From an uncultured Gammaproteobacteria bacterium (lineage in GTDB: Bacteria; Patescibacteriota; Patescibacteriia; CAZSQN01): a stretch of DNA of 64,000 nucleotides. Both the position numbers and the translations under genes were made by a program. Below the pieces are notes generated by a model. It had not been told where the DNA came from, ran no database searches, and saw only the letters and a program-made list of their open reading frames with translations. Location: positions 130,354 through 194,353 of the forward strand of contig CAZSQN010000001.1 in assembly GCA_964609095.1 (NCBI GenBank), written 5' to 3'. Below, piece after piece: positions 26,602 to 50,823 of the stretch (the first letter of the stretch is position 1; each line of letters starts with the position of its first letter).

Positions 26602-26610
26602 AAAACGAAG

Positions 26611-26662: not shown

Positions 26663-26664
26663 AT

Positions 26665-34773: not shown

Positions 34774-36531
34774 ATGCCTCGTCTAAACAAAAAAAAGATT
34801 AAATTTTTTCAATTGACTGTTATCACGGCAGCTTTTTTTGCCGTGTTTTTGTTTTTTTTGCCGCCGCTTTCGGCCTTGGCGTTGGAGACCGGATTGGAGC
34901 AGGTCGGCGAAACCATCTCGCTGCCCACGACTGACATCCGCATCGTTATCGTGCGCATAATCAATATCGCTCTTGGATTTTTAGGCATTATCGCGGTGCT
35001 GATTTTGCTCTACGGCGGATTCATCTGGATGACTTCCGGCGGCGATGAAAGAAAAGTGGAAACAGCCAAATCAATCATAAAAAACGGCGCGATCGGGCTC
35101 ATCATCATCATTCTTTCTTTTGCCATTACCAGATTTATTTTGACGCGGCTGGAGCAGGCGGCTTTTGGTCCCGGCGCTCCCGGGCGCGGGCGCGGCGGCC
35201 CCCCGATTGAACGGCTCTCCGGAGCGCTTGGCACGGGACCGGTGCAGATGCACTTCCCCCGGCGCGGAGCCACCAATGTGCCGCGCAATACCAACGTGAT
35301 GGTGACCTTTAAGGATTCCATTGATACCGCCACCGTGACCCCTGATAACTTCCGCGTGAGCAGATCCAGCGAGCGTGGCGGCCCCTTTGTTTCCGGTATT
35401 TTTAGATTTTCCGCTGACGGGAAAACGGCGGTGTTTGACCCGACAGAGCTTCTTGGCAGCGGGACCGATAATATTTTCTATACGGTCCGGCTGGATGGCG
35501 GGACCGGCGGGATAAGAAACAGCTCCGGCGAGGCGATTTTTTCCGGCTCGTTTGGCGAAGGTTATCTTTGGGAATTCCAGACCGGAACGTTTGTTGACGC
35601 CGCTCCGCCGCAGGTAATTTCGCGAGTTCCTTTCGGCGGCAGAAATCCGAGAAATATTTTGGTGCAGGTGAATTTTTCCGAGGCCATGGATCCGACTTCG
35701 GTTACCGGAGAAACAGAGGAAGGCGGCGCCGGTTTCCGCAATCTTATGGTGCGGGGAGGCGTCGCGCCGGTTGCCGGTTCGTGGACCGTCTCCAATGAAT
35801 ATCGGACAGTTGAATTTCAGACAGCTGATCTCTGCGGGACAAATTCCTGCGGCGGCAATGTGTACTGCCTGTCAAGCAATACGGAATTTACAGCCATCAT
35901 TGTGGCCGCGACTTTGGGCGCGGAACCGCCCGCTTCTTCCGGATTCCCTTATGACGGAGCGGTTGACGCTTCCGGCAATTCGTTAGACGGAAACAACGAC
36001 AATTTGGCCGCGGGCCCTCCGGCAGACAGCTTTCTTTGGGATTTTAGCACTGATAACACCATTGATTTGCGGCCGCCGACGTTGGAGATTTTGTCCCCGG
36101 GCATAGATGAAGGCAATGTTGCCGTGGACCGGCCGATTGAGATGACTTTTTCTAAAATTATGAGCGGCAGTTCGCTGACCAATGAAAATATCTCGCTTGG
36201 CAGCGAGCCATTGTATGAATTCTGGTACTCGCTCCGGAGCGAATTATTGGATGAGCGCAATGAGGTTGCCACTTCCAGCGCCCCGGTTAAAACAAGAGCG
36301 CTCATAGAGCACGGCGTGCTCGCGTCTTCTTCCGAAACGACCAGATACGATTATTTCCCGGGAGCGACCTCGGGCGTGAAAGATGTTTTGCAAAATTGTT
36401 TTTTCCCCGGAGCCGGGCCAAGAAGCGGTTCTGACGCCGGAGGCGGGGTTTGCGCCACGAGCCGTTCCGAACCGTATTGCTGCAACGGCAATCCTTCGGC
36501 AACGGCTTGTCCGTATTTGCGAGCGCCATGA
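34774..36531 (+). CDS. Secreted/membrane-anchored surface protein: VirB2/TrbC-pilin-like N-terminal module + Gly/Pro linker + Ig-like (SbsA/Big_5-type) domains
   Basis: 585 aa; signal peptide then two hydrophobic helices around WMTSGGDE; N-terminal about 120 aa about 70% identical to N-terminus of the downstream giant protein; stop overlaps next start (ATGA). Confidence 0.7.
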   Translation: MPRLNKKKIKFFQLTVITAAFFAVFLFFLPPLSALALETGLEQVGETISLPTTDIRIVIVRIINIALGFLGIIAVLILLYGGFIWMTSGGDERKVETAKSIIKNGAIGLIIIILSFAITRFILTRLEQAAFGPGAPGRGRGGPPIERLSGALGTGPVQMHFPRRGATNVPRNTNVMVTFKDSIDTATVTPDNFRVSRSSERGGPFVSGIFRFSADGKTAVFDPTELLGSGTDNIFYTVRLDGGTGGIRNSSGEAIFSGSFGEGYLWEFQTGTFVDAAPPQVISRVPFGGRNPRNILVQVNFSEAMDPTSVTGETEEGGAGFRNLMVRGGVAPVAGSWTVSNEYRTVEFQTADLCGTNSCGGNVYCLSSNTEFTAIIVAATLGAEPPASSGFPYDGAVDASGNSLDGNNDNLAAGPPADSFLWDFSTDNTIDLRPPTLEILSPGIDEGNVAVDRPIEMTFSKIMSGSSLTNENISLGSEPLYEFWYSLRSELLDERNEVATSSAPVKTRALIEHGVLASSSETTRYDYFPGATSGVKDVLQNCFFPGAGPRSGSDAGGGVCATSRSEPYCCNGNPSATACPYLRAP

Positions 36532-39500
36532 AAATAAATTATCGCCAGCTTAAAATATTATTTTTTATCGCCCTTGCTTTGGTCGGGGTTGTTGCTTTTT
36601 TATCATCTCCTGTTTTAGCCGCCGAGCTGAACCTTGGTTTGGAGCCGGTTGGCGCGGAGATAGCTTTGCCAATCGCCGATATTAGGGTGGTCATTGTCCG
36701 CATTATCAATATAGCGCTGGGCTTTCTTGGCATACTCGTGGTGCTGCTTATGCTTTACGGCGGTTTTACTTGGATGACCGCCGGCGGCGATGAGAAAAAA
36801 ATAGAAACAGCCAAAAAGATCATAACCAACGCGGTCATCGGTTTAATCATCATCATTCTTTCTTTTGCCATCTCTTCCTTTATATTAAGGCGGCTGCAGG
36901 AAGCGGTTGGCGGCGCCGGTCCGGGCGGGCCTGCGGGCGGCCGCGGCCCCGGAGCCGGCGGTTTGCCGGCGGGCGCGTTTTATACCCGCGCCATTACGCC
37001 TTCGGGCGCTACCTCCATCCGCAATGTGACGGTGCGGGCCATATTTTCTTCAAATGTTGATTCCGCAACATTGTCCGGAAATTTAACCGTGGCCAGAGCC
37101 AGCGACAGCGCGGTTGTTTCCGGACGGCTTACCGCCTCTTCCAATGTCGCGGAATTTGTGCCGGATACTCCCTGTCCGGATGCCAACAATGATGGCGCGC
37201 CTGACGCGCCGGCTTGCTTTTCCGCCGACACTGATTTTAGAGTAATTGTTTCCACGGGCCTGCGCGACGACAGGGGCCGTCCGCTCCAATGCGGAGGGCT
37301 GGCGCCAAGCTGTGAAGGCGCTTTCCGCACCGGAAGTTTGGTGGATACCGCGCCGCCCTCAGTGCAGGTGACTTCGCCTGATGACGGCGCCAATGTTCCG
37401 GCTGACTCGCTTGTTCCCCTGCAGGCGTTTGGCAGCGATGATTCCGGCGTTTCCTATATAGAATTTTCAGTTGACGGACGCGTCATTGACAGCGACGCGC
37501 CCACCGGCGGCTATGCCGATGTCGAATGGGATTCAACCGGCGCGTCCGCGGGAAGGCACACGATTTCCGCCAGGGCTTATGATTTAGACAATAATTCGGC
37601 TGTTTCTTCGCCGGTTAATGTTTCAGTGCGGCCGGCATACTGCTTTAACGGCGTGCTGGACGGAGATGAAACGGCGGCTGATTGCGGCGGCTCCTGCGGA
37701 GCTTGCGCCGCGAGCGGCTGTTCATCCGATGCCGACTGCTCGTCAGGCAATTGCAGCAACGGCATTTGCGTTGAAACGCCAAGGATAGACGAAGTCGCGC
37801 CTTTGGACGGGCAAGTCGGAAGTTTGATTACCATCTCCGGAGCATTTTTTGGGGATAGCCCCGGCAGAGTGTTGTTCCGTTCCGCTACTGGCGAAACAGT
37901 GGCCACCGGCGGCGTTTGTTCTGACTATTGGCGCGATAATCAGATTGTGGCGGCCGTTCCCGAAGGCGCGATTGACGGTCCCATTAGAGTTGAAGCGTCC
38001 TCCGGAGAAAGCGACAGCACATCTGACGCGCGCGGTCCGGTGATGCCTGATTTTGACGTCAATAATGTTTTAAGGCCGGGTATTTGCAGAATTGTGCCGG
38101 CCTCGGCGCGACCAGATGAAACATTTACTTTGGAAGGAACGGGTTTTGGCTCCGCGGCTCCGGGGGCGAACGTGAGTTTTGGCGGAAGAACGGCCGTTAC
38201 CTCCTCTTGGGCCGACGCGTCAATTGCGGGAGCGGTGCCGCGGATTGCTTCCGGCCGCGTTCCGGTTCAGGTTACCGTCGGCGGCGGCAGTTCCAATCCT
38301 GTTTATTTTAATGTTTTGTCTCTCTCCGCCGGCAGAGAGCCGCAGATTTTAGAAATCAACCCATCCGCCGGGCCCAAAGGCGAATACATCACTTTAAGCG
38401 GAGATAATTTTGGCGAAACAGTCGGCACGGTTACCTTTCGTAATCCCGTGACCAATGATGAGGCGCGGGCTGACGTTGATTTGCCCGAAGCGTGCGCGAC
38501 TGATTTCTGGCGCAACAACTCAATCACGGTTAAAGTTCCGCGTCGTTACAATGACGGCAGAACCGAACTTTCCGAGTCAGCGCATTCCGTAACCGTTGTT
38601 CGTTCCGACGGAGCGAATTCCAACGCAATTGATTTTGCGGTTACTGCCGGAACGGCAAAACCTGGCCTCTGCGCCATTAATCCTGATAATGGCCCGGCCG
38701 GAACGGATATTTTACTTTCCGGAGAGCGGTTTGGGGTCGCCAGAGGCGCGGTTATTTTTAGTCAAAATCAGCGCGTGAGCCCGCCGGAGGGCGCGTGGAA
38801 TGATGAAGAAATCCGCGTTGCCGTTCCCGAAGCGGCCGTTACCGGCCCGGTAAAAGTGGTTGTCGGAAGTCAGGAATCAAATCCTCTTAATTTCGCGGTG
38901 CAGAATTGCAATCAAAGCGCTTGCGACGCCGGATTCTCCTGCTGTCAGAGTTCGGGCACCTGCGTGAGGGAAGGGGAATCCTGCGCCGGAGCCGCCCTTT
39001 CCGGCGGTTATGCCTGGCGCATATCAACCGGCCCGATACCCACGACTCCGCGCGTGGTGGAAGAATGCCGCGAAGCTGTTTCGCCGTCTCCTTCGCCTTG
39101 GGACGCAAGACGCGGGGGCAATAATGTTTGCGTCAACGCGGCCATAAATGTGCGTTTTACGGTTGATATGGATTCCTCCTCGCTTGTTCCCGGAAATATT
39201 GTGGTTGAACGTTGCCTTGGGGAGGGGGCCGAGCCGTGCGCCAGTAGAGAGCTGGTGACAGGACGCGTGGACGCGTCAGTCAGGGCAATCCGTTTTGTCC
39301 CTCTTGCCTCTTTGAATGCCAACGCAACTTATCTTGTCACTTTAACCACCGGATTGCGGGCGGCCGGAGCCGCCGGCGGCGCCATGGAAGAAAATGCCGC
39401 CCGCTGCGGAGCCGGCAATGCTTATTGTTTCAGATTTAAGACCAGGCCGAACGCGGAAAATTGCGCCATCGGCAGTTCCGTTATGGATCCGGCTGATTTT

Positions 39501-42500
39501 GTTTCCAGAGAACAGGAGGACTTGGCTTATGTCGCCTCGGCTTTGGCCGGCGACGATATCTGCGTTTCGTTAAACGCTGATGCTTATGATTGGATTTGGA
39601 GCGTGCGCGAAGCGGACGGCTCACTGTTATCCGGAATCAATCCCGAAGCCAGAGTTGCCAATAATGACAATCTAGGCGGCGGAGCTGACGGGCTTTCTCC
39701 TGACGGACGGGTAGACAGCCGCCAGAGCGTCAGCACTCTTGCCGAAACCATTCCTGATCCGCCTGTTTACGTGCATGCGGCGGCGGCGGAAAGGACCGGC
39801 CGCGGCCGGCTGACAATTGATTTTACCGACCCGGAGATTGTGGAAAGCTGGCCTGCCTGCGACTCGGCCTGCGTCAACGCCGAGGTGGCGGCAAGATTCA
39901 ATACGGCCATGGACGCGGCAAGTTTTGCCGGAAACGCGTTTTTGCAACGTTGCGCCAACGAGTCGTGCCGGCTTTTTGATCAGGATATCTCGGTTTCGCC
40001 GTCTTATGACGAAGACGCTCGGATTTTAAGAATTGAACATCCTGCTTTGGAACCCTCGCGTTATTATCGCGTCAGGATTGGCAATGCGGCCAGATCGCGG
40101 TCCGGCGTGAATTTAACCCGTCTTAATTATGGAAATTATTATTCCTGGATTTTCCGCACCAAAGACGACAGCGCCGGCTGCGGCGTGGCGTCGGTGGATG
40201 TGTCTCCGGCAAGCATCCAGCTTTATTATCTTGGCGCCAGGCAAACGTTCAGGTCCGCGCCAATATCGCCTCCTGATGAATGTTCGCCCTCCGGCCAAAG
40301 ATTGACCCCGACCGATTATTCATGGGGCTGGGATGTCAGTAACAGAAATGTGGCGGAACTTTTGGATGACGGCGCTTTAAATGTTCTGCCGACTTCCGGC
40401 GTTAACGGCTGTTCTGATAAATGTCTGCGCGTCGGTTCGTCTGCCGGAATTCCGGTTTGCGGAAACGGCGGAGCTCCGGAGCGGGGCGAGGATTGCGATG
40501 ACGGAAATACTGTCTCGCGCGACGGATGCAGCGAGATTTGCTTAAGCGAGGGTTCTGATTTTGGCGGGAGCGACTGCGGCGACGGAAATGTCGGCGTGGG
40601 CGAGGATTGCGATGACGGAAACACGACTGCCGGAGACGGATGCGGTTCTTATTGTCTGAATGAGGGCTCAACCGCCGGCGGGTCGCTTTGCGGAAATAAC
40701 GATCTCGGGGACGGCGAGGATTGCGATGATGGAAATACTACCGGCGGCGACGGCTGCAGCGCTGAATGTTTGGACGAAGGTTCTATTAAGGGCCCCATGT
40801 CTGTTTGCGGAAATAGGGTGATAGAAGCCGGCGAGGATTGCGATGATGGAAACACTGCTGCACGCGACGGCTGTTCAAGCAGGTGCCTTAACGAGGGAAG
40901 ACCCGCCTGCGCCAACGGCAACAGAGCCAATTGCTGCGGTAATGGAATCACCGACAATTTTGAGGATTTTGATGACGGCAATACAACTTCCGGCGACGGC
41001 TATTCCAATCGCTGTCTGGCCGAGGGCTCGTCGATTTCTTACAACTCTATTTGCGGCAATGGTTCAAACGAAAACGACCTTGAGGCCGGCGAGGAGTGCG
41101 AGTTTACTTCGCGCGATAATCTGGTTGACCCGCTTCAGTACGCGGAAGCGCGAAATCAGGGGGAAACTTCCGTGAACGCTTCAACTGCCGGCCAAAGAGG
41201 ATCGGCCAATCTTCGCGTCCAATGCGTCTGCCAGAATGATTCTATGTGCGCTTCCGGCGGATTTCCGCCGGGTCTGGGCTGCGGCGCTGACAAATGCTGT
41301 TCCGCCCGTCCGAGAGTTGAGGAGGTTTCGCCTTTGGACGGTTCGCGAGACGCGTGCAGAAACGCGCTCCTTACAGCCAAGTTTTCCACTTTGATGGACG
41401 CAACTAGTTTTACTTCCGCCACGGTGCGGCTTGATTCCGCGGCTGTTGCGGGCGCGTGTCCGCAAGACAGCGCTCTGGTGGACGGGGTCTGGTGCGAAGG
41501 AGGCGCGGGCGAACTGCGTTTGGGCGCGCGCGCTGTTACTGAAGTCGTTGGCGAGATGGCGGAAGAAAAAACAATTTTGCAGATTTCCGGCGCCTCGGCT
41601 TTGCGCGCCAACACGGGTTATCGCGCGCGCATCATCGGCGATCCCAATATCGGCGATAACGCGACTCAAGGAGTAAAGAGCAAAACGGGCGTGGGCATGG
41701 ATGGCAATTACATCTGGACGTTTAGCACAGGCAGTGATATCTGTTCTTTGGACGAAGCGGAAATAGCTCCGTCTCCTGTTACATTTTTAACCACTGCTGA
41801 TCCGGATGGCACTAAGACGGTTGCCGTCCGCGCTTTAAGCAGAAGGAACGGCAATCTGGTGGAGATAGCCGGCATGCCAGAATATGATTGGGAATGGAGC
41901 TGGGCTGATTCAGACGCTATAGAGCCGGAATCAAAAATCATATCCCGCTCTGCCGGCGCGAGAAGAGAAGAACAAACAATTTCCAGCCGCCCAAGAAACG
42001 GCCAGATTACTTTGACCGCTACGGCGGAAATTATTACCGACACGTTTTTTACGCCCACTACCGCGAGGCGGTTAGTCGGGCCCGATGTTATTCCCGGTCG
42101 GCGCGTCAGTGATACCTCTTTGGTTATAGTAAATCTTTGCGAAAATCCCTGGCCGGAGCGGATAGGCGGTTTTTGGGAGCCGTTTACCGACGGGGATATG
42201 AATTTTTCATTATTTTATTGCCGCGACCGCGGCAATCAGGGAACTGCCGATGACCTGCCCGGGCTTATTGCCACCCGCGTTCCGGCTCCGCCTTCTCCAA
42301 ATATCATCCGTGAATATCTGTTTGCGGCCAATCCTTGTCCGGAAGATGGCACCGGTTGCGAAGCCGGGGACGCGCTGGGTATGAGGATAGCGGCTAACGG
42401 CGAGCATCTTTCCCCCCGCGACTGGTATTACCGGCAGGGATTCCGCGGTTCTCCAAGTTCCCGGGTTATTGACGGTTACGCCGGCTTGGAAGATGGAAGA

Positions 42501-45500
42501 ACGGTTTATGTAAACGCGGCAAACAAAATAGGCGACCCGGTTTATACCAACATTTATATTGTTTCTTATAACGAAGGCGCCGGAGATGATGTTGTGGCCG
42601 CGCGCGATCAGATTCTTGCCAACTGGAAACTTTCAACCAATGTCGGCTCCGCCCGGCGCTGCGTTGACGCTGACGGATTGCCTATGACTGTCGGTGAAGG
42701 AGCGGAGAGAAACCCGGCAGTATGTTTAAGCGACGCGGACTGCCGCGGAATCGGCGAGCCGCCGCGGGACGGATTCTGCGACGCCTCCGGAGACAAATTG
42801 CGCCGCGACGCAATCCGGCTCGGCGATGTAAGGTCAATGGAGATTGCTTTAAACGCTTATAAAAACAGCCACAAGCATTGTTCCAGAAATGTTGACAGGA
42901 TTTGTATTATTGACAGCAATTGCCCGAGCGGCGAGCAATGCGTTGGCGATTATCCCAGAATGACCGCCGGCACTTTTATTCCGTCGTTATCCGTTTCAAA
43001 GTGGCCTTCGTGGCAGAATCTGGGCAGCGAGCTCGGCGTCACGCTCCCCAATGACCCTTTGAATAATTATTCATCTTGTCCCGACGGCGCTCTTCGCGCG
43101 ACCTGCTGGAATTCGCAAAATCAAACTTACGCCTGCAATGAATTTTCAAACGTGTATCATTACCGAAATCGCGGCGGCACGCGCTATGATTTGTCCGCGG
43201 AGCTGGAATTTGGACCCTTGCCTCATGAGGTGGCGGATGGCGTTGCTGATTCCGCCCTCCGCGTTAATTTGTGGGCGCCGCTTCCGACAGGGCCGATAAT
43301 TCCCGGAGAAACAACTTATGAGCTTAATTTCAACGAACAATGCCAAGGGGTAACTCTTTCCGCAAATAATCTTTGCGGCGACGGAGTGGTTGGTCCGGAT
43401 GAGCAGTGCGAGGCGCCTTCATCAGATATTGTTTCTTGCGAAGCTGGCGGCAGAGCCGGGTTTGCCAATCTGACCTGCGGGGCTGATTGCCGGTGGTTTG
43501 GAACGCAAGGGTGCCAGACCGGCAGATGCGGAGACGGAGTAAGGCAGGAGCCGGAAATTTGCGATGACGGAGTGAGAAACGGCTCTTACGGCCGCTGTAA
43601 TGTTTCCTGTACCGGAATCGGCGATCGCTGCGGCGACGGCGGGCGGCAGGGGCCGGAAGTTTGCGATGAGGGCCAATTAAACGGCCAATACAATCATTGC
43701 GCTTGGGATTGCCGGAGCAACCCCGGAACTTATTGCGGAGACAAAGTAAAAAATGGGACCGAAGAATGCGATGGAGAAAAAGGCGTGGCCAATGTAGAAG
43801 GTCTTCCCGTTTGCGGAGCGAACGCGCAAGGATTTCCAACCGGCCGCAATTGCCGGAGCGATTGCGGTTGGAGCGGCTGCGAGGCAATGGGATTTTGCGG
43901 CAATGGCCTTAAGGAAGGAAGGGAAGAGTGCGATGACGGAAACGCCAATAATACCGATGGCTGCATTATTATTTCCGGCCGCGAGAGCGATCTGGCTGTT
44001 TCTTGCAGAAATGCCCGTTGCGGCGACGGGTTTACTTATAATGGAACAGAGCTTTGCGATGCCGGGCCGGAAAACGGCGTTTCCTGCGTTCCCGGATACG
44101 GCGTTTCCTGCAATTACTGCACCAACCTCTGCAATCCGGCAACTATCTCCGGAGGTTCCTGCGGGGATGGACGAGTTTCCGGGCCGGAAGTGTGCGATGG
44201 CAATCTTAAAGCCAATAATCAAGCGCTGCTTAATACAGAAACCTGCCATGGCAATTGTCTGGCAATTTGTCCGCCGACTTTTGAAGAACGAGGCGCGACT
44301 TGGAGAAAGGCGGCTTTGGCAGATGGAGTTGCTCCGTCGCCGTCAGCATCCGTGGAAGTGGCCGCGAATGAAGAAGCGACCTTGATTCTTCCGGCCTGCC
44401 GCAGTTCTTCGGGAGAGCGCCGTTGTATTGGCGGGACAAATGCCGGAAATGTATGTACGGGCGAAATAGAAGGGTTTTGTGATGTGGACTGCGCTTATCA
44501 ATGTCCGGGCGGGCGTTGCGGTGAAGCTCATCCCATTACTGCCGACCTGGCTTTTACTGAAGCTGAACTGTCGCCGATTGACGTGGTGTTTGTGACGGAT
44601 CTCTCAGGCTCCATGAATGTGCCAGACGCTTCTTGCGATAATCCTGACGAGAGTAAAAATTGCGATATGCCCGGAGGCGGAACAGATACCTGGGAAGGGA
44701 AAAAATGTTCTGTTGACGCTGATTGCGTGCGACCGCGGCCAAGAAGAAGCAGCATAGTCGGCACATGCGTGACTGCCGATACCCGTATAGAATGCGCTAA
44801 AGACGCGCAGAAAAAAGCCATTGATTCGCTTTTTGACGCTTATCCGCGCGGGCTTATACATATAGGACTCGTGTCTTTTAAGGGCAATTCGGCAACAATG
44901 GATACGCCGGAAGTGTGCGGAGAAGGCAGGTTATGCGATGATCCAACCGCGCATCGGCGCGCGCTTAAAGATATTGTTGATGCTTATGTCGCGAGCGGAG
45001 GCACGCCGACCTCGCGCGGAGTTGATGACGCCCGTTGTATCCTTTTAGGATCTCGGCCCGATTCGCAAGATGTTTTGCATAATAACCCTTTTCCTAATTG
45101 TCCCGATGTTCCTATTACCAGAGATGTTGAGGATTTAAGAAATAATATCAAGACCGTTCTTTTGATGAGCGATGGCGCTCCGTCAGGAGGATTTAATCCT
45201 GCCGCCGCCGCAACTGCGATTAAAACCAGCCATACTTTTACCGAAGGGAACGAAGAAGTGGTTATTCCGCCCTCCTATGTTTATTCTATGGCTTTTACCA
45301 ATTCCACCGCGCTTATTAAAGATATGATTGATTGGAGCAGCGATTGCCGCACATTTGGAGTTTCCGAATGGAATGCCGGAGAATGCCTTTTCTCCGATGG
45401 CGCGGCCGGAAGCGCTGATGACCTTAACGCGCATAACGCGGATACGACGCACGAGGAATACGGTTATTCATCAACGACGGACCTTACTCCGCTTTACACT

Positions 45501-45719
45501 GCCATTATCGGATCAATCACCGGCGTTCGTGTTATTTTAGAAAACGGCAATGAAGCGGCCGCGACCGAAGTTGCCCCGGGCGGAGACAGGCCGCTTTTCG
45601 TGCCGGCTAATTTTAGCTGTAATCCGAATAGGGCCACCGAACTTGCCGGCCGCATCCTTTATAAAGGAAGGGGAACAATGAGAGTATCGGACACAAAGTT
45701 GTCCGCTTGCTTCCCGTGA
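36528..45719 (+). CDS. Giant (about 3063 aa) multidomain surface adhesin-like protein
   Basis: Start ATG 36528 overlapping upstream stop; N-terminal VirB2/TrbC-like module; Ig-like domains (about 37000-37650, 39100-40100); 4-5 IPT/TIG domains (about 37780-38900); six tandem Myxococcus-type Cys-rich repeats CGxGxxExGEDCDDGNTxxGDGCSxxCLxEGS (40458-41130); second Cys-rich repeat bank (about 43375-44215); C-terminal VWA domain with MIDAS DLSGS (about 44575-45330). Confidence 0.85.
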   Translation: MKINYRQLKILFFIALALVGVVAFLSSPVLAAELNLGLEPVGAEIALPIADIRVVIVRIINIALGFLGILVVLLMLYGGFTWMTAGGDEKKIETAKKIITNAVIGLIIIILSFAISSFILRRLQEAVGGAGPGGPAGGRGPGAGGLPAGAFYTRAITPSGATSIRNVTVRAIFSSNVDSATLSGNLTVARASDSAVVSGRLTASSNVAEFVPDTPCPDANNDGAPDAPACFSADTDFRVIVSTGLRDDRGRPLQCGGLAPSCEGAFRTGSLVDTAPPSVQVTSPDDGANVPADSLVPLQAFGSDDSGVSYIEFSVDGRVIDSDAPTGGYADVEWDSTGASAGRHTISARAYDLDNNSAVSSPVNVSVRPAYCFNGVLDGDETAADCGGSCGACAASGCSSDADCSSGNCSNGICVETPRIDEVAPLDGQVGSLITISGAFFGDSPGRVLFRSATGETVATGGVCSDYWRDNQIVAAVPEGAIDGPIRVEASSGESDSTSDARGPVMPDFDVNNVLRPGICRIVPASARPDETFTLEGTGFGSAAPGANVSFGGRTAVTSSWADASIAGAVPRIASGRVPVQVTVGGGSSNPVYFNVLSLSAGREPQILEINPSAGPKGEYITLSGDNFGETVGTVTFRNPVTNDEARADVDLPEACATDFWRNNSITVKVPRRYNDGRTELSESAHSVTVVRSDGANSNAIDFAVTAGTAKPGLCAINPDNGPAGTDILLSGERFGVARGAVIFSQNQRVSPPEGAWNDEEIRVAVPEAAVTGPVKVVVGSQESNPLNFAVQNCNQSACDAGFSCCQSSGTCVREGESCAGAALSGGYAWRISTGPIPTTPRVVEECREAVSPSPSPWDARRGGNNVCVNAAINVRFTVDMDSSSLVPGNIVVERCLGEGAEPCASRELVTGRVDASVRAIRFVPLASLNANATYLVTLTTGLRAAGAAGGAMEENAARCGAGNAYCFRFKTRPNAENCAIGSSVMDPADFVSREQEDLAYVASALAGDDICVSLNADAYDWIWSVREADGSLLSGINPEARVANNDNLGGGADGLSPDGRVDSRQSVSTLAETIPDPPVYVHAAAAERTGRGRLTIDFTDPEIVESWPACDSACVNAEVAARFNTAMDAASFAGNAFLQRCANESCRLFDQDISVSPSYDEDARILRIEHPALEPSRYYRVRIGNAARSRSGVNLTRLNYGNYYSWIFRTKDDSAGCGVASVDVSPASIQLYYLGARQTFRSAPISPPDECSPSGQRLTPTDYSWGWDVSNRNVAELLDDGALNVLPTSGVNGCSDKCLRVGSSAGIPVCGNGGAPERGEDCDDGNTVSRDGCSEICLSEGSDFGGSDCGDGNVGVGEDCDDGNTTAGDGCGSYCLNEGSTAGGSLCGNNDLGDGEDCDDGNTTGGDGCSAECLDEGSIKGPMSVCGNRVIEAGEDCDDGNTAARDGCSSRCLNEGRPACANGNRANCCGNGITDNFEDFDDGNTTSGDGYSNRCLAEGSSISYNSICGNGSNENDLEAGEECEFTSRDNLVDPLQYAEARNQGETSVNASTAGQRGSANLRVQCVCQNDSMCASGGFPPGLGCGADKCCSARPRVEEVSPLDGSRDACRNALLTAKFSTLMDATSFTSATVRLDSAAVAGACPQDSALVDGVWCEGGAGELRLGARAVTEVVGEMAEEKTILQISGASALRANTGYRARIIGDPNIGDNATQGVKSKTGVGMDGNYIWTFSTGSDICSLDEAEIAPSPVTFLTTADPDGTKTVAVRALSRRNGNLVEIAGMPEYDWEWSWADSDAIEPESKIISRSAGARREEQTISSRPRNGQITLTATAEIITDTFFTPTTARRLVGPDVIPGRRVSDTSLVIVNLCENPWPERIGGFWEPFTDGDMNFSLFYCRDRGNQGTADDLPGLIATRVPAPPSPNIIREYLFAANPCPEDGTGCEAGDALGMRIAANGEHLSPRDWYYRQGFRGSPSSRVIDGYAGLEDGRTVYVNAANKIGDPVYTNIYIVSYNEGAGDDVVAARDQILANWKLSTNVGSARRCVDADGLPMTVGEGAERNPAVCLSDADCRGIGEPPRDGFCDASGDKLRRDAIRLGDVRSMEIALNAYKNSHKHCSRNVDRICIIDSNCPSGEQCVGDYPRMTAGTFIPSLSVSKWPSWQNLGSELGVTLPNDPLNNYSSCPDGALRATCWNSQNQTYACNEFSNVYHYRNRGGTRYDLSAELEFGPLPHEVADGVADSALRVNLWAPLPTGPIIPGETTYELNFNEQCQGVTLSANNLCGDGVVGPDEQCEAPSSDIVSCEAGGRAGFANLTCGADCRWFGTQGCQTGRCGDGVRQEPEICDDGVRNGSYGRCNVSCTGIGDRCGDGGRQGPEVCDEGQLNGQYNHCAWDCRSNPGTYCGDKVKNGTEECDGEKGVANVEGLPVCGANAQGFPTGRNCRSDCGWSGCEAMGFCGNGLKEGREECDDGNANNTDGCIIISGRESDLAVSCRNARCGDGFTYNGTELCDAGPENGVSCVPGYGVSCNYCTNLCNPATISGGSCGDGRVSGPEVCDGNLKANNQALLNTETCHGNCLAICPPTFEERGATWRKAALADGVAPSPSASVEVAANEEATLILPACRSSSGERRCIGGTNAGNVCTGEIEGFCDVDCAYQCPGGRCGEAHPITADLAFTEAELSPIDVVFVTDLSGSMNVPDASCDNPDESKNCDMPGGGTDTWEGKKCSVDADCVRPRPRRSSIVGTCVTADTRIECAKDAQKKAIDSLFDAYPRGLIHIGLVSFKGNSATMDTPEVCGEGRLCDDPTAHRRALKDIVDAYVASGGTPTSRGVDDARCILLGSRPDSQDVLHNNPFPNCPDVPITRDVEDLRNNIKTVLLMSDGAPSGGFNPAAAATAIKTSHTFTEGNEEVVIPPSYVYSMAFTNSTALIKDMIDWSSDCRTFGVSEWNAGECLFSDGAAGSADDLNAHNADTTHEEYGYSSTTDLTPLYTAIIGSITGVRVILENGNEAAATEVAPGGDRPLFVPANFSCNPNRATELAGRILYKGRGTMRVSDTKLSACFP
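40458..41130. repeat. Tandem about 117-bp coding repeats (Cys-rich module) inside the giant gene
   Basis: gaggattgcgatga(c/t)ggaaa(t/c)ac recurs at 40490, 40598, 40715, 40832 with conserved spacing; six protein-level copies. Confidence 0.8.
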
Positions 45720-45794
45720 ATTATGAATAATGAATTAGGAATAAGGAATCGTTGAATCAAAAATTCATAATTCCTGATTCCTTATTCCAAAACA

Positions 45795-46664
45795 ATGACT
45801 GACGAATTACAATCGCAACCAATAGCTACGGAGACAATGCCGCCAGAAGCAGAAATAACGGCGATTAGGCGCAAGAAGCCGATTGTTTTGGGCTTGGTTT
45901 CCATCCTTTTAATTGTTATAATAGGAGGCGGAGTGATTTATTTTTTCAGAAATAAAATAGGCCTGCCCGGCAGGCCCGTTCCCTTGCCAAGGGTAATGGA
46001 AAAAATAGAAAATGGAAGAGCCCGCTGCACCGCGGCGCGGGATAAAGAAAAGTGTTTGTCTGAACTTACTTTGGATGAGGCGGTCGCCGGCAAGCAGGTT
46101 GCGGCTTGCGAAAAAGTGGCGGATGCTTCTTTGCGCGACGGCTGTTATGACACAATCGCGCGCGAACTCGGCGATGAGAAGATGTGTACCCGCGTTTCTC
46201 TGCCCGCTGCCGCTGATGATTGCGCCGGCGCCATAATTTTTGCCAAATCCAAAAAGTCAGACGATATGGCTTTGTGCGCGGCCATTGCTTCGCCGCGATG
46301 GCAAGACGGTTGTTATAGATTTATTTGGAGCGAACGGGGAACCAGAGAACTTTGCGAAACGGCTGGAGATAAGCGCGATCAGTGTCTTAATTTTATTATA
46401 ACGAGCGAAGCTGCGGGGAGCGGAGAGCCGGCATTGTGCGCTGAAATTTCCGTTGAAGAAGAACGGGTTGCTTGCGAAGAGCTTGCCAGCGAAGCCGCGG
46501 CCGAAACGGCTTCTGCCCGCGACGATGACGGTGACGGTCTTACAAATGCGGAGGAAGCAAGATACGGAACAAATCCAAATAATCCAGACACGGATGGTGA
46601 TGGATTTAAGGACGGGGACGAGGTAAAGGCGGGGTATAACCCAAAAGGACCGGGACGTCTATGA
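45795..46664 (+). CDS. Membrane-anchored protein with novel Cys-rich repeats and C-terminal thrombospondin-type-3 Ca-binding repeats
   Basis: 289 aa; N-terminal TM; about 5 repeats C-x7-9-(R)DGCY; C-terminus DDDGDGLTNAEE...DTDGDGFKDGDE...GYNPKGPGRL. Confidence 0.6.
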   Translation: MTDELQSQPIATETMPPEAEITAIRRKKPIVLGLVSILLIVIIGGGVIYFFRNKIGLPGRPVPLPRVMEKIENGRARCTAARDKEKCLSELTLDEAVAGKQVAACEKVADASLRDGCYDTIARELGDEKMCTRVSLPAAADDCAGAIIFAKSKKSDDMALCAAIASPRWQDGCYRFIWSERGTRELCETAGDKRDQCLNFIITSEAAGSGEPALCAEISVEEERVACEELASEAAAETASARDDDGDGLTNAEEARYGTNPNNPDTDGDGFKDGDEVKAGYNPKGPGRL

Positions 46665-46755
46665 TAGAATCTGGAATCTGGAATCTGAAATTTAGAATTT
46701 GAGGTTTAAATTAAAATTCTAAATTCTATATTCTAAATTCTATATTCTAAATTTT

Positions 46756-47442
46756 ATGTTCGAAAACACTCCGCCTAATTTACCAACCGCTAAAGAGCCG
46801 GAAGATATTTTTGGCGAAAAAAAATCGGCTCCAGCCGGAGCCGGAGCGCCGTCCGCGCCGGGAGCTCCATCTGCGCCGCCGCGTCCCGCTCCTCCGTCTC
46901 GTCCGCTAGTTCCTCCGCCTTTGACGCCGCCAGCCGCCCCCAAGCCGCCTGCGCCAGGAGCAGCGCCGTCTCGGGCAACTCCGGCAGCGGTTGAAAAGCC
47001 GTCAAAATCATGGAAAAGGGTGGTTTTATTTGTCGTTGTTTTGGCAGTTTTAGGCGGCGGAGGTTATTTTGCTCTGACTTATTTTGGTTTGTTGGGTCCT
47101 AAGAAGCCGGTTCCTTCGCCGGAAAAAGAAGAAACATTGCCGCCGCCTCCGCCCCCAGCGCCGGTTCAAGAAGAAACTCCGGCTCCGCCGCCTCCGCCCC
47201 CAGCGCCGGTTGATTCTGACGGAGACGGGTTGACCGATGAAAATGAGCAAAGCTTGGGCACTGACCCGCTTAAAGCCGATACTGACGCTGACGGACTTTT
47301 GGACAATGAAGAAGTGCGCATTTATAAAACAGACCCGTTAAATTCTGACACTGACGGCGATGGCTATAAAGACGGCGATGAGGTCAGAAATAGTTATAAT
47401 CCGAACGGTCCGGGCCGGCTTTTCCAAGTGCCGACACAGTAA
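46756..47442 (+). CDS. Proline-rich membrane-anchored protein with TSP3-like Ca-binding repeats
   Basis: 228 aa; Pro/Ala-rich N-term, one TM, PPPPPAP linkers, DSDGDGLTDENE...DTDADGLLDNEE...DTDGDGYKDGDE...SYNPNGPGRL C-terminus. Confidence 0.6.
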   Translation: MFENTPPNLPTAKEPEDIFGEKKSAPAGAGAPSAPGAPSAPPRPAPPSRPLVPPPLTPPAAPKPPAPGAAPSRATPAAVEKPSKSWKRVVLFVVVLAVLGGGGYFALTYFGLLGPKKPVPSPEKEETLPPPPPPAPVQEETPAPPPPPPAPVDSDGDGLTDENEQSLGTDPLKADTDADGLLDNEEVRIYKTDPLNSDTDGDGYKDGDEVRNSYNPNGPGRLFQVPTQ

Positions 47443-47519
47443 ATTGGAATAAAGAATTAAGAATTATGAATAATGGAAGTAGAATTCTTAATTCTTGATT
47501 CATAATTCATGATTCAAAA

Positions 47520-48548
47520 ATGATGGAACCGATTAAACCGCCATTAACTCCGTCTGCTCCATCCGCGCAGGCAATTTCCGAACCGGAGATTAAAACAATG
47601 CCCGAACGATTTATCGGCGCTCCTCTTAAAGCGCCTCCGAAACCGGTAGAAAAGGTTGTTGTGGTTGAAAAAGTAATAGAAAAAAAAGTTTTACCCCCGG
47701 CTCCTTTGCCTGTTGGTCTTAAAAAAGCGGGTTTTCCCAAGTGGGCAATAGCGGCGATACTTCTTTTAATAATCGGCGGCGGAGCAGGGCTTTGGTATGC
47801 GGTTTCATTAACTCCGGCCAAGCTGGTTGCGGTTACCCCGCCTCCTCCGCCGGCTCCATTGCCGCGCTGTTCCGACGGACTTGATAATGACGGCGACGGT
47901 TTGATTGATAATGCGGATCAGGGCTGCGAGAATCCAAGCGACAATGATGAAACTAATCTTCCGCCGCCCCCGCCGCCTCCGTCAGGCCCAAAGGCCGGCG
48001 CTGACAGCGATGCCGACGGTTTAACAGATGAAGAAGAAAAGGTTTATGGGTCCAATTTCCAAAATTCGGACTCGGATGGCGACGGATTTATTGATGGGGT
48101 AGAGTTGTTTCATCTGTATAATCCGGCCGGTCTGGCTCCGGTGCGTTTGATTGATACCGGTTCCGTCACGCTTTTTAAAGACCGTCTGGAGCGTTATCAA
48201 ATTTATTTTCCAAAACCATGGAGCGCTGTTGAAGCCCCGGACAGCAAAACAGCCGCTTTCCATTCTTTGGGAGAAGACGCGATGGAAGTTCTCGTGGAAG
48301 AAAACATTAACCGCCTTCCTATCACCAACTGGTATCTGGAGCGCAATCCAGGCGTCAAACCCGCGGAACTTGAAACATTTATAACCAAGAGTAATTTAGA
48401 CGGAGTAAAAAGCCCTGATCGGCTTACGGCTTATATCTCGGCCAACAGCTCGGTTTACGTCATCACCTACCGGCTGGGAGCCGATGAGACGATTAATTTT
48501 AGAAAAACGTTTGAGATGATGTTAAATAGTTTTACCCGATTGCGATGA
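47520..48548 (+). CDS. Proline-rich membrane-anchored protein with TSP3-like repeats plus extra C-terminal globular domain
   Basis: 342 aa; CSDGLDNDGDGLIDNADQGCENPSDNDE, DSDADGLTDEEE, DSDGDGFIDGVE, LYNPAGLAPVRL then about 140-aa domain; stop overlaps ybeY start (ATGA). Confidence 0.6.
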   Translation: MMEPIKPPLTPSAPSAQAISEPEIKTMPERFIGAPLKAPPKPVEKVVVVEKVIEKKVLPPAPLPVGLKKAGFPKWAIAAILLLIIGGGAGLWYAVSLTPAKLVAVTPPPPPAPLPRCSDGLDNDGDGLIDNADQGCENPSDNDETNLPPPPPPPSGPKAGADSDADGLTDEEEKVYGSNFQNSDSDGDGFIDGVELFHLYNPAGLAPVRLIDTGSVTLFKDRLERYQIYFPKPWSAVEAPDSKTAAFHSLGEDAMEVLVEENINRLPITNWYLERNPGVKPAELETFITKSNLDGVKSPDRLTAYISANSSVYVITYRLGADETINFRKTFEMMLNSFTRLR

Positions 48549-48970
48549 TTAAAGTAGAAATAAGCGGCTCATCAAAAATTTCATCCGCCGAAGTATTGAA
48601 GATAATCCGCAGAGCGCTTAAAGCCGCCGGCATAAAAGATGCGTACGTTTCTGTTGCTTTTATCACGTCGGAGGAAATTAAAAAATGGAACCGCCTTTAT
48701 AGAAAGAAGGCAAGAGCAACCGATATCTTGTCTTTTGGTTTTAACCGGGCAATGGGCGATGAAAAAAAATGGAAACGGGCAGGCGAGCTCTTGATCTGCG
48801 AAGCGGCGGCCAAAATTAACGCTAAAGAAAAACGCCATTCGCTTAAAAAAGAAATCGGAACTCTTTTGGTTCACGGCTCCCTGCATCTGGTCGGCTACGA
48901 TCATGAAGGCGAGAGGGAAGCGAAGACGATGTTTGCGTTACAGAACAAAATTATAATGAAACTAAAATGA
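48545..48970 (+). CDS. ybeY: rRNA maturation endoribonuclease YbeY
   Basis: HGSLHLVGYDHE metal-binding motif; 141 aa. Confidence 0.85.
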   Translation: MIKVEISGSSKISSAEVLKIIRRALKAAGIKDAYVSVAFITSEEIKKWNRLYRKKARATDILSFGFNRAMGDEKKWKRAGELLICEAAAKINAKEKRHSLKKEIGTLLVHGSLHLVGYDHEGEREAKTMFALQNKIIMKLK

Positions 48971-48974
48971 AAGT

Positions 48975-49343
48975 ATGAACAGAATGAGAAGGTTTGCGAG
49001 AAGCTTCAGATTTGCTTTTAAGGGTTTGATGACGGTTATAAAAGAAGAGCAGAGTTTTAGAATTCAGCTTTTTTCCGCTTTTGTCGTTTTGATTCTTTCT
49101 TTGGCGTTCCGCATCAGCAAGTGGGAAGCGGTCGCGCTCATTCTTGTTGCTTCTTCGGTACTTGTGTTAGAATTAATCAATAGCACTTTGGAGCGGGTTG
49201 TTGATTATATGAAACCGCGCCTTCATCATTATGTGGAAGCGGTTAAAGACATTATGGCGGCGGCGGTTTTGGTTGCGGCTGCGGCGGCGGCTGCGGTGGG
49301 AATAATTATTTTCTGGCCTTATCTTAAAGAATTGATTAAATAA
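48975..49343 (+). CDS. dgkA: Diacylglycerol/undecaprenol kinase DgkA family
   Basis: 122 aa, 3 TM; ELINSTLERVVDYM and VKDIMAAAVL motifs. Confidence 0.75.
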   Translation: MNRMRRFARSFRFAFKGLMTVIKEEQSFRIQLFSAFVVLILSLAFRISKWEAVALILVASSVLVLELINSTLERVVDYMKPRLHHYVEAVKDIMAAAVLVAAAAAAAVGIIIFWPYLKELIK

Positions 49344-50602: not shown

Positions 50603-50696
50603 AAGGCGATTGTCAGGCGGTGAATACTTTTTGTGTTCATCTTGTGGACTGTGCGCGTTGACACGGTTTTTTTAATTTAGGATAATCTAAAGGTCA

Positions 50697-50823
50697 TAAT
50701 TCTTTAATGTAGTTGCGTCCCGATAGTTTTCATCGGGATGCAAAGGAGAGCGAGACGCGCGCGAAAGAGAGGGCGAGCCCGATAAGGGAGAGCCCGAACG
50801 GGAGCGCGTGTCGGAAGCGAGCA
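50697..50823 (+). promoter_or_regulatory. Conserved structured leader motif, copy B (upstream of ftsZ)
   Basis: ataattctttaatgtagttgc + hairpin (tcccgat-agttttc-atcggga) + aaaggagagcgagacgcgcgcgaaagagaggg...cccgaacgggagcgcgtgtcggaagcgagcaATG. Confidence 0.65.

Follow-up and report, generated by a model that had tools for sequence, protein, structure and literature searches.

Proteins recognised by the bacterial thrombospondin type 3 profile TSP3_bac (PF18884) carry 22-23-residue repeats in which a DxDxDGxxDxxE loop is followed by a helix and GTDPxxx, and the same repeat occurs in three consecutive proteins, here called A, B and C, that are encoded in the genome of an uncultured Uhrbacteria species (Patescibacteria/CPR); the whole 64,000-nt stretch analysed is referred to as the window. 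Many of the proteins retrieved in searches are OmpA-like and resemble A, B and C in the TSP3 repeat alone. By contrast with OmpA-like TSP3 proteins, A, B and C have neither a beta-barrel nor an OmpA_C domain, and they combine an N-terminal transmembrane (TM) anchor and a monoderm-type envelope with a capped repeat array. The earlier note had suggested a search for OmpA-like partners; the peptidoglycan-binding domain OmpA_C (PF00691) was present just in unrelated proteins that share the repeat.

Three other described systems have comparable Ca2+ loops. The integrin-like gliding adhesin CglD of Myxococcus, for which Ca2+-dependent function has been reported, and MtsD resemble A, B and C in being surface proteins with arrays of acidic DxDxDG Ca2+ loops, and function together with a VWA adhesin; the Ca2+-binding COMP-like domain of CglD has been proposed to interact with the VWA adhesin CglB (bioRxiv 10.1101/2023.10.19.562135). 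The CglD and MtsD profiles are the best NCBIfam partial matches of A, B and C, over the repeat region only, with scores of 22.6-41 bits for CglD (NF033765, cutoff 400) and about 12-25 bits for MtsD (NF047639, cutoff 800); the three proteins are not members of either family, themselves contain no VWA or EGF domain, and are anchored by a TM helix, not as outer-membrane lipoproteins. Among solved structures, only that of the Staphylococcus aureus Bap EF-hand region (PDB 7c7r/7c7u; E 3e-6 against 7c7r, DYDKDGLLDRYE...DTDGDGKNDGDEVVNY) is significantly similar in sequence to the loop pair; Bap, a biofilm protein, differs in being LPXTG-anchored and lacks both the YNPxGxGxL cap and a TM anchor. Dockerin type I, a small docking module of two tandem 22-residue Ca2+ loop-helix ("F-hand") repeats, is alike in topology only: Dockerin_1 is among the precomputed Pfam matches on some homologues, the Dockerin_1 profile (PF00404) gave no match to A, B or C at E<=1, and the window ORFs covered by the Pfam scans include no cohesin. 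A literature search with TSP3/thrombospondin repeats in CPR/Patescibacteria and with the Pfam identifiers returned no description of A-, B- or C-type proteins, yielding just background on Patescibacteria type IV secretion systems (T4SS) and VirB2-like pilins.

As the earlier note had described, the locus consists of three same-strand ORFs of 289, 228 and 342 aa directly 3' of a 3089-aa ORF that ends at position 45719. Its features, with positions in the window, are as follows.

34774..36531, + strand: 585-aa protein with T4SS_pilin and Big_5 domains, directly 5' of the giant gene
36528..45719, + strand: giant surface protein; its ATG at 36528 overlaps the stop of the previous gene as ATGA
45725..45791, + strand: giant/A intergenic hairpin with tandem GGAATnn arms (dG -21.5 kcal/mol, z -3.8)
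45795..46664, + strand: gene A, 289 aa (NCBI MBI2098899.1, HYT45_00600, "hypothetical protein", Ca. Uhrbacteria)
45879..45947, + strand: A TM helix, about residues 29-51, with RRKK before the helix
45984..46517, + strand: A ectodomain, an alpha-solenoid of six short-helix/long-helix units with one C-x8-11-C pair each
46521..46622, + strand: A TSP3_bac loops DDDGDGLTNAEE and DTDGDGFKDGDE (Pfam and loop pattern)
46632..46661, + strand: A cap GYNPKGPGRL, the literal C-terminus
46664..46757, + strand: A/B intergenic hairpin, (GGAATCT)n against (AATTCTA)n (dG -24.6 kcal/mol, z -4.2)
46756..47442, + strand: gene B, 228 aa
46756..46812, + strand: B cytoplasmic N-terminal peptide, family pattern MF[DEN]...(K)EPED[IM]F[ASG]
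47017..47085, + strand: B TM helix, about residues 88-110
47212..47382, + strand: three B TSP3_bac loops (Pfam and loop pattern)
47395..47421, + strand: B cap YNPNGPGRL, followed by FQVPTQ
47447..47515, + strand: B/C intergenic hairpin (dG -18.8 kcal/mol, z -3.0)
47520..48548, + strand: gene C, 342 aa (HYT45_00610)
47580..47624, + strand: C cytoplasmic peptide EPEIKTMPERFIGAP, consensus EPEI-x-x-[MI]PE[KR][FY]YG, P28 invariant
47739..47807, + strand: C TM helix, residues 74-96
47868..47927, + strand: C Cys-flanked acidic DxDxDG insert CSDGLDNDGDGLIDNADQGC, residues 117-136, a third DxDxDG loop that is lineage-specific
48003..48104, + strand: two C TSP3-type loops DSDADGLTDEEE and DSDGDGFIDGVE (pattern, family alignment and model)
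48114..48149, + strand: C long-form cap LYNPAGLAPVRL (family alignment and model)
48150..48545, + strand: C C-terminal domain, about 132 aa, Mog1/PsbP-like alpha/beta, pLDDT >90
48545-48970, + strand: ybeY, overlapping C
48975-49343, + strand: dgkA, 3' of ybeY
49358-50602, + strand: ftsA, 3' of dgkA
50713-52035, + strand: ftsZ ORF, likely ATG at 50818, 3' of ftsA

The database record for C (NCBI MBI2098900.1) begins at the second ATG and is 341 aa long, and no protein record for B was found in the collection searched. Long hairpins fill the spacers between the giant gene and A, between A and B, and between B and C, and ftsZ is served by a strong promoter-like site of its own; the claim of co-transcription with ybeY-dgkA-ftsA-ftsZ has a good basis only for C-ybeY-dgkA-ftsA, which overlap or lie no more than 14 nt apart (the C stop and the ybeY start share ATGA at 48545-48548, as claimed). 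The window also encodes an LCP wall-polymer ligase.

Each of the three proteins has one strongly hydrophobic N-terminal TM helix, and because basic residues are commoner N-terminal of the TM segment, the predicted orientation is N-in/C-out. TSP3-type repeats number two in A, three in B and two in C. Searching the entire window with D-x-[DN]-x-[DN]-G-x-x-[DN]-x-x-E, which loosens the DxDxDGxxDxxE loop slightly, gives seven occurrences, each of them inside A, B or C. TSP3_bac matches A (57.4 bits) and B (64.4 bits) above its Pfam gathering cutoff of 25; C scores 20.3 bits, under that cutoff, and both of its loops are family-invariant (D162, D164, D166, G167, D170, E172, E173, D184, D186, D188, D192 and E195) and modelled at pLDDT >90. 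The eukaryotic TSP3 profile that the earlier note had named, PF02412, gave no match to A, B or C at E<=1, and the repeats themselves contain no Cys, unlike the PF02412 repeat. Judging from the EF-hand-like loop consensus and the similarity to the Bap EF-hand region, the loops probably bind Ca2+.

The TSP3 array of each protein ends in a shared motif, GYNPKGPGRL in A, SYNPNGPGRL in B and LYNPAGLAPVRL in C, as the earlier note had noticed. Its placement at the extreme C-terminus is correct for A, but six residues follow it in B. In the structural model of A, Y281 and R288 form a beta-bridge and residues 281-289 have a block-mean pLDDT of 94; in C, L199, Y200 and P202 are family-invariant and Y200 and R209 form the beta-bridge. 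The cap is the best-conserved part of the A family, with N, P, G and G invariant and Y and L nearly so. The motif is widespread in other genomes, yet nearly confined to Patescibacteria: in 53 retrieved C-family loci there are 47 instances of a TSP3 loop with the cap after it, but the 254 TSP3 loops of 36 other loci include a single one. In nearly all A-family members it lies 0-2 residues from the C-terminus and in most B members 4-14, whereas in C-type proteins it is internal, 133-135 aa before the protein end. The module of TSP3 loops plus cap also precedes a sortase domain in two proteins (P0138, with three internal copies of the cap, and P0197), and YkuD-like and helical domains in Magasanik-, Morani-, Parcu- and Yanofskybacteria loci; the long cap variant is found ahead of other ectodomains. 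The cap is therefore the end marker of a portable TSP3 module.

Protein A comprises the TM anchor, six Cys-stapled helical hairpins, two TSP3 loops and the C-terminal cap. An unrecognised Cys repeat does exist in A, as had been suspected, but rather than about five copies of C-x7-9-(R)DGCY there are six C-x8-11-C pairs (78/87, 105/117, 131/143, 161/173, 187/197 and 215/227) with a period of 26-30 aa, in an ectodomain modelled at pLDDT about 90-97; "DGCY" is found in just two units, and the wider-family consensus is (R/K)D-x-CY. Helicobacter Hcp/Sel1-like proteins are cysteine-stapled alpha/alpha repeats, and the A ectodomain is likewise a solenoid of helical hairpins, each unit having its own Cys pair. 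Sel1 and TPR profiles gave no Pfam match to the A ectodomain at E<=1. The repeat family, about 700 sequence clusters, has no Pfam entry; eight of 10 of its long proteins had no Pfam match of any kind, and none of the 10 had Sel1 or TPR above cutoff.

Pro-rich linkers, which had been ascribed to all three proteins, are present in B (22% Pro) and C (12% Pro) but not in A (5% Pro, no real linker). Protein B runs from the cytoplasmic MFENTPPNLPTAKEPEDIF peptide through a Pro-rich tail, the TM helix and a Pro-rich stalk to three TSP3 loops, the cap and six further residues. It is a near-universal single-copy gene with no ectodomain and a strongly conserved cytoplasmic peptide, the two elements of which are carried by 61/68 and 66/68 family members, respectively. 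The conserved cytoplasmic peptides read EPEDIF in B and EPEIxxMPExFYG in C, and one protein (P0080) mixes a B-like MFDD start with a C-type MPERF motif; from their similar layout and N-terminal peptides, B and C are probably paralogues. The Cys-flanked insert of C is missing in the other 16 sequences aligned with C, and scores 35.4 bits against NCBIfam acid_disulf_rpt, under the cutoff of 41. Residues 160-342 of C are modelled at pLDDT >90, and residues 211-342 form an alpha-beta-alpha sandwich matching solved Mog1/PsbP-like members. The extracytoplasmic relatives of this domain are BT_1490, cyanobacterial PsbP, LpqN, DcrB, Apa and Tsi3/TplEi, from which it differs in its 4-16% identity and in sitting behind TSP3 loops and a TM stalk. 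Against the PsbP family proper, C scores below both cutoffs (PF01789, 16.4 bits, cutoff 23.5; NF040946, 13.1 bits, cutoff 60).

The giant protein has an N-terminus resembling T4SS_pilin (PF18895, cutoff 26.6 bits) at a sub-threshold 24.2 bits, followed by Big_7, TIG, Big_5 and DUF4215 domains; the 585-aa upstream protein scores 32.1 bits, above the cutoff, and giant homologues in two other loci (L001 and L003) have an unmarked T4SS_pilin match. Near the C-terminus of the giant there is a sub-threshold Pfam match to VWA_2, and a homologue in a further locus (L093) has a weak VWA match; a PDB sequence search for a VWA domain with the giant C-terminus found nothing. The proposed linkage to a VirB2-like giant recurs, with a giant/pilin homologue in 31 of the 32 related loci that have at least 4 kb of upstream sequence. 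The order giant-(A)-B-C-ybeY-dgkA-ftsA-ftsZ is kept in about 35 species, and hisS-yqeY-pilin-giant-A-B-C-ybeY-dgkA-ftsA-ftsZ-nrdR-pyk is collinear throughout the clade. On the other side, ybeY-dgkA-ftsA-ftsZ follow C within -4 to 52 nt in 36/41 retrieved loci; once three duplicate contigs had been discarded, 35 loci were left, of which 31-32 have ybeY no more than 700 nt away and 31 have ftsA no more than 2.5 kb away. Giant-side and ybeY-side adjacency thus both persist in about 90-97% of loci, and a functional tie to the adhesin cannot be read from gene order. Exceptions run both ways: giant-B-C stay together where ybeY/ftsA are no longer adjacent (L039, L044 and L045; in L039 and L045 ftsA is 9 kb away or missing from the locus), and B-C-ybeY are kept in the only locus without a giant upstream (L036, none within 6 kb), where a T4SS coupling-protein-like ATPase and a zeta toxin, probably a mobile insertion, occupy the expected place; we regard this locus as uninformative. 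Gene order is therefore undecisive between an adhesin and a division link. What it does establish is that the genes are conserved, with B and C position-fixed.

We propose, with a probability of about 0.45, that A, B and C are membrane proteins with a capped module that act as Ca2+-dependent envelope scaffolds or partners of the neighbouring giant pilin-anchored adhesins, the role as adhesin partners being the part that we infer. All three would be type-II (N-in/C-out) single-pass proteins of the Patescibacteria envelope with a common extracellular module, in which two or three EF-hand-like TSP3_bac Ca2+ loops, each with a short helix after it, lead to the cap, a Tyr...(Arg/Lys)-Leu loop of the form YNPxGxGxL or the longer YNPxxxAPxxL that closes the array. 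The module of A has a disulfide-stapled alpha-solenoid attached N-terminally, that of C has a binding domain with the Mog1/PsbP fold attached C-terminally, and that of B carries no cargo. Since their cytoplasmic tails carry conserved short peptides, B and C probably join a cytoplasmic partner to an acidic, Ca2+-loaded head outside the cell, with a Pro-rich stalk crossing the wall between them. Their partners would be giant adhesins with Ig-like domains and a probable VWA domain, and they would act at the cell surface; the translational coupling of C to ybeY would reflect operon compactness rather than common function. The idea that A, B and C are tip components is unlikely, because all three are N-terminally membrane-anchored, which places them at the cell surface and not at the end of a 3000-aa adhesin. 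An adhesin link is favoured by the giant-(A)-B-C order in 31/32 loci, which survives loss of ybeY/ftsA, by a distant A-like protein encoded, in an otherwise unrelated setting (L092), just after a 1645-aa VWA/LamG surface protein, and by the weak VWA matches of the giant and its L093 homologue, with the proposed CglD-CglB interaction as a precedent; the locus with B-C-ybeY and no giant would count against it, and clade-wide collinearity together with equal ybeY adjacency makes the neighbourhood support weak.

The occurrence of the module on sortase and YkuD-like enzymes, which are unrelated to adhesion, fits a generic envelope spacer at least equally. TSP3 plus cap might be a Patescibacteria-wide juxtamembrane or wall-spanning stalk that holds unrelated ectodomains at height and possibly binds Ca2+ and wall polymers, with A, B and C as independent envelope-biogenesis or maintenance proteins in a frozen gene order and with no specific tie to the giant or to division. 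We find this possible, if on balance doubtful: TSP3 repeats fill the periplasm-spanning part of OmpA-family proteins in many matches, LpqN and DcrB, both structural relatives of the C domain, serve in envelope biogenesis, gene order is collinear across the region, and the LCP ligase gene suggests a wall with attached polymers, but a generic stalk explains neither B, with its conserved peptide and no ectodomain, nor the cohesion of giant-B-C where the downstream genes differ. FtsQ/DivIB-type proteins sit upstream of ftsA in other bacteria, and short peptides are known to dock in this way, as with the PilN peptide on PilM and FtsN on FtsA; the B and/or C peptides could accordingly be imagined to dock on FtsA or FtsZ, replacing FtsQ/DivIB-type proteins and coupling division to the envelope. 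The bitopic N-in topology, the conserved short N-terminal peptides, the closeness of the division genes 3' of C, and a P-x-NLP element in many B proteins, loosely resembling the PilN INLLP motif, all point this way. However, many B members lack the NLP element, the non-division genes ybeY and dgkA intervene, and B-C remain with the giant where ftsA is distant or missing, making a divisome link improbable; C as FtsQ/DivIB itself was rejected, given its Mog1/PsbP fold, the lack of a POTRA match, and the two genes between C and ftsA. A hybrid, in which B and C are clade-specific transmembrane couplers whose cytoplasmic peptides sit on a core machine (FtsA/FtsZ being positional candidates) and whose capped TSP3 heads are dockerin-like Ca2+-dependent plugs for the giant pilin-anchored VWA adhesins, is equally a long shot. 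Least credible by far is cleavage or attachment at YNPxGPGRL by a sortase- or exosortase-like enzyme or a PDZ protease. The motif is close to the C-terminus in nearly all A-family and most B members, and a Trypsin_2/PDZ protease gene lies downstream in some related loci, but in A and B it is followed by only 0-6 residues, which include neither the hydrophobic segment nor the basic tail seen in LPXTG, PEP-CTERM or GlyGly-CTERM signals, and the models, judged by DSSP and pLDDT, place it with high confidence as a folded hairpin, probably packed on the last helix. The cap as a C-terminal sorting signal was rejected, since it is internal in C-type proteins and in tandem in P0138, and lacks a TM tail after it.

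The finding is at present a descriptive one. Attachment to host cells is the presumed way of life of Patescibacteria (CPR), and to our knowledge their surface architecture is almost entirely uncharacterised. Two conserved membrane-protein families of fixed position (B and C) emerge from the locus, together with a portable module of TSP3 loops and YNPxGxGxL cap that is an apparent lineage signature of Patescibacteria surface proteins, and, as a third element, an uncatalogued Cys-stapled helical repeat family; existing annotation of these elements is "hypothetical protein" only, and B apparently has no protein record. Were B and C couplers as outlined above, host attachment would be physically wired to the cell cycle in these ultra-small episymbionts. 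If the module is a Ca2+-dependent docking or wall-anchoring device, it would provide a handle for finding and classifying CPR ectoproteins, and a model, open to testing, of the surface arrangement of giant adhesins.

Genes A, B and C encode a trio of N-in/C-out membrane proteins that share a lineage-restricted, capped EF-hand-like module and a conserved genomic neighbourhood. The source is a Candidatus Uhrbacteria (Patescibacteria/CPR) MAG, in which the three ORFs lie, as the earlier note had placed them, on one strand directly 3' of the 3089-aa ORF for a giant surface protein (the giant), which ends at 45719:

45795-46664, + strand, gene A, ORF of 289 aa
46756-47442, + strand, gene B, ORF of 228 aa
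47520-48548, + strand, gene C, ORF of 342 aa

The sequences of A and C match NCBI MBI2098899.1 (HYT45_00600) and MBI2098900.1 (HYT45_00610) exactly, each annotated 'hypothetical protein'; the exact product of gene B is absent from a collection of 15 billion proteins. Since the B ORF is intact and typical of its family, and its product is missing between two consecutive accessions, B is apparently without a protein record in public annotation; presumably locus tag 00605 is untranslated or marked as a pseudogene. A gap left by the gene caller in a related locus (L003, 9256-10001) likewise encodes a B orthologue (MFENTPDNLPVDDIF...), which was called in the duplicate contig L004.

Each protein has a single strongly hydrophobic segment, preceded by an N-terminal extension some 30-90 residues long, and basic residues are commoner on the N-terminal side of this segment. 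This arrangement identifies type-II anchors rather than signal peptides, in keeping with the membrane anchoring read earlier from the sequence. A slightly relaxed form of the DxDxDGxxDxxE loop, D-x-[DN]-x-[DN]-G-x-x-[DN]-x-x-E, has seven matches in the window, all inside A, B and C. In the Pfam scan, the bacterial TSP3 repeat PF18884 (cutoff 25) scored 57 bits in A and 64 bits in B, which upholds the TSP3 assignment for these two; C reached only 20 bits, below the cutoff, and the eukaryotic PF02412, the profile first suggested, matched none of the three. The Pro-rich linkers ascribed to all three do not extend to A, which has none. The ectodomains differ beyond the shared module: that of A is a Cys-stapled solenoid, that of B contains nothing further, and C carries a Mog1/PsbP-fold domain. 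C of this genome also has a private insertion (47868-47927), a DxDxDG loop between two Cys that is a sub-threshold match to the NCBIfam 'acidic double-disulfide repeat'; at this point of the stalk, other members of family C have an FN3 domain or inserts rich in CxxxC.

The TSP3 loops are closed by a YNPxGxGxL-type sequence (the cap). In an alignment of 14 family A sequences, with identities as low as 29%, conservation is highest over the last loop and GYNPxGxGxL, and in 17 family C sequences (down to 28% identity), L199, Y200 and P202 of LYNPAGxAPVRL are invariant. AlphaFold models of A and C are both confident at the cap, and DSSP assigns a beta-bridge from Tyr to Arg/Lys, closing the loop after the last helix; we infer that the cap is a structural closure. 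The motif had been described as the extreme C-terminus of two of the proteins, which is true of A alone, since FQVPTQ follows it in B. Among the retrieved proteins, those of A type have the cap 0-5 residues from their C-terminus and those of B type mostly 4-14 residues from it; in C-type proteins it lies 133-135 residues before the end and is followed by the C-terminal domain. Its recurrence in other proteins and genomes, as anticipated, extends beyond families A, B and C: P0138 has it three times in tandem upstream of a sortase domain, a longer variant (GYNPLKPAPGDKL) precedes helical domains in Morani- and Parcubacteria loci, and looser variants precede a YkuD-like domain in Magasanikbacteria and a helical domain in Yanofskybacteria. 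Given this variety of positions and contexts, two to three TSP3 loops plus cap constitute an autonomous, portable unit, and the shared motif caps the module rather than acting as a terminal signal. The capped module is lineage-restricted: the 53 fetched C-family loci (227 loops) have 47 instances of a TSP3 loop followed by a cap, and a further 36 loci with TSP3 loops (254 in all) have a single one. Judged by their sequence, the loops would bind Ca2+. Among solved structures, the EF-hand region of S. aureus Bap alone resembles the loop pair in sequence (7c7r; E 3e-6). The topology of the module, two loop-helix 'F-hands', resembles that of dockerin, and the dockerin profile had no match in A, B or C in the Pfam scan.

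The Cys repeat noted in A, given as about five copies of C-x7-9-(R)DGCY, is present, but as six C-x8-11-C pairs, just two of which end in DGCY. When 1.84 billion representative proteins were scanned in full by HMMER with the repeat region alone, 709 clusters (defined at 50% identity) matched at E<=1e-3, and 41 did so at E<=1e-10. Long proteins are frequent among them, with up to 9 matched stretches and up to about 30 repeats each; the Cys-Cys spacings have sharp maxima at 12 and 14, so that the period is about 26, and the consensus is ..LC..I.....(R/K)D.CY..(I/V)A.... An N-terminal hydrophobic segment is present in 129 of the 149 top proteins and TSP3 loops in just 12. Eight of ten long members had no match of any kind in a Pfam scan, and none had Sel1/TPR above cutoff. 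The repeat is thus real, uncatalogued and an independent module, whose disulfides in A would be extracellular. The A repeat (45984-46517) and proteins P0355-P0503, mostly N-terminally anchored or secreted, are candidates for a new repeat family definition.

All the well-covered loci that were inspected have the gene order (pilin-domain protein)–giant–(A)–B–C–ybeY–dgkA–ftsA–ftsZ–nrdR–...–pyk. They belong to Uhr-, Magasanik-, Falkow-, Kerfeld- and Buchananbacteria and SG8_24-type genomes, a set that we take to correspond to GTDB class ABY1. Among 38 non-redundant C-family loci, 32 have at least 4 kb of upstream sequence, and 31 of these keep a giant/pilin homologue there, so that linkage to the giant is conserved in gene order; ybeY is immediately 3' of C in 31-32 of 35, and ftsA lies within 2.5 kb in 31 of 35. 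A-type proteins are confined to one sub-clade. Exceptions run both ways: three loci (L039, L044, L045) keep giant–B–C together with ybeY and ftsA gone or 9 kb off, whereas L036 keeps B–C–ybeY without a giant in the 6 kb available. In the giant's place (1-4513), L036 has genes for a zeta toxin, an uncharacterised membrane protein of 479 aa and a TrwB/TraG-like T4SS coupling-protein ATPase of 595 aa that includes a zinc finger; this stretch is probably a mobile insertion. P0181, an A-like protein from outside the clade, is encoded directly 3' of a VWA/LamG surface protein of 1645 aa, and neither ybeY nor ftsA is close by. Many records with the Patescibacteria-type order giant–B–C–ybeY–dgkA–ftsA–ftsZ (L010, L015-L022, L032, L033, L035, L038, L040, L042-L044) are titled 'uncultured Gammaproteobacteria bacterium', which looks taxonomically wrong.

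The TGA of C and the ATG of ybeY overlap as ATGA (48545-48548), as reported previously, and C and ybeY are -4 to 52 nt apart in 36 of 41 fetched loci. From ybeY it is 4 nt to dgkA and a further 14 nt to ftsA, with ftsZ next. Co-transcription of the whole surface module with ybeY–ftsZ, as first proposed, is plausible, but tight packing is limited to C–ybeY–dgkA–ftsA. Each of the spacers upstream (giant|A 75 nt, A|B 91 nt, B|C 77 nt) is taken up by a long AT-rich hairpin with arms of tandem 6-7-mers, and none of the three folded hairpins has a U-tract:

45725-45791, giant|A hairpin, dG -21.5 kcal/mol, z -3.8 vs shuffles
46664-46757, A|B hairpin, dG -24.6 kcal/mol, z -4.2 vs shuffles
47447-47515, B|C hairpin, dG -18.8 kcal/mol, z -3.0 vs shuffles

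Further hairpins with tandem 6-7-mer arms occur in the window at 26608-26665, 12192-12243, 1804-1856 and 10086-10145. Across all these sites, the three spacers included, the units differ from one hairpin to the next (for example, (GGAATCT)3 versus (AATTCTA)n, or AAGCATG x3 versus its complement), and L001 has tandem heptamers in the spacers that correspond to giant|A, A|B and B|C. The hairpins may have a role in attenuation, or in RNA processing or stability. L093 has a canonical GC hairpin and T-run between giant and A. A near-consensus sigma70-type promoter-like site (TTGACA-17-GATAAT, 50658-50686) lies just upstream of ftsZ, whose listed ORF (50713-52035) has a TTG start and a 35-residue extension unlike FtsZ; FtsZ itself probably begins with the ATG at 50818.

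B and C are probably paralogues. B-type proteins start with MF[DEN] in 61 of 68 cases and carry (K)EPED[IM]F[ASG] ahead of the TM helix in 66 of 68, and C-type proteins have an EPEI-x-x-[MI]PE[KR][FY]YG peptide. P0080 joins a B-like MFDD start to the C-type MPERF motif and C-terminal domain, and the B orthologue in L005 bears a C-like domain. Conservation of these short peptides on the cytoplasmic side implies a conserved cytoplasmic partner.

Upstream of A, two consecutive genes (34774-36531 and 36528-45719), coupled through an ATGA overlap (36528-36531), encode the pilin-domain protein (585 aa) and the giant, surface proteins with a T4SS_pilin (VirB2-like) N-terminal domain, sub-threshold in the giant. 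The giant also has Big_7, TIG, Big_5 and DUF4215 domains, and its C-terminal region gives a sub-threshold VWA_2 match (19 bits) and includes a DLSGS (DxSxS) string, read by eye; the L093 homologue has a weak VWA match. No T4SS ATPase was found among the scanned ORFs of the window, the remainder of which is housekeeping (parAB, relA/spoT, topA, dprA, pth, der, LCP ligase, lepB, hisS, yqeY). The LCP gene suggests that wall glycopolymers are attached in this organism:

30111-31544, - strand, LytR-CpsA-Psr (LCP) family protein, 5 kb upstream of the pilin/adhesin genes

We propose, at a probability of roughly 0.45, that A, B and C would act as Ca2+-dependent surface scaffolds that partner the neighbouring giant adhesins. 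There is a precedent in Myxococcus CglD, whose Ca2+-binding COMP-like domain is proposed to contact the VWA adhesin CglB (bioRxiv 10.1101/2023.10.19.562135). The narrower suggestion that the trio are tip components is unlikely because of their membrane anchors. The main competing explanation, that the module is a generic spacer for the wall zone and the three are independent envelope proteins, draws on its presence on sortase and other enzymes, and we consider it rather unlikely. Position and topology would also suit a role in coupling to the divisome, which we regard as improbable, and a sorting-signal role for the cap motif, contradicted by its internal and tandem occurrences, is very improbable indeed.

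TSP3_bac surface proteins are already known, and Pfam and NCBIfam recognise solely this generic repeat in A, B and C; the cap and the B and C families are new, and the Cys-helix repeat is uncatalogued. The literature searched yielded no description of TSP3 proteins of Patescibacteria or of these families. The trio is useful for annotating CPR surfaces and as a source of hypotheses.
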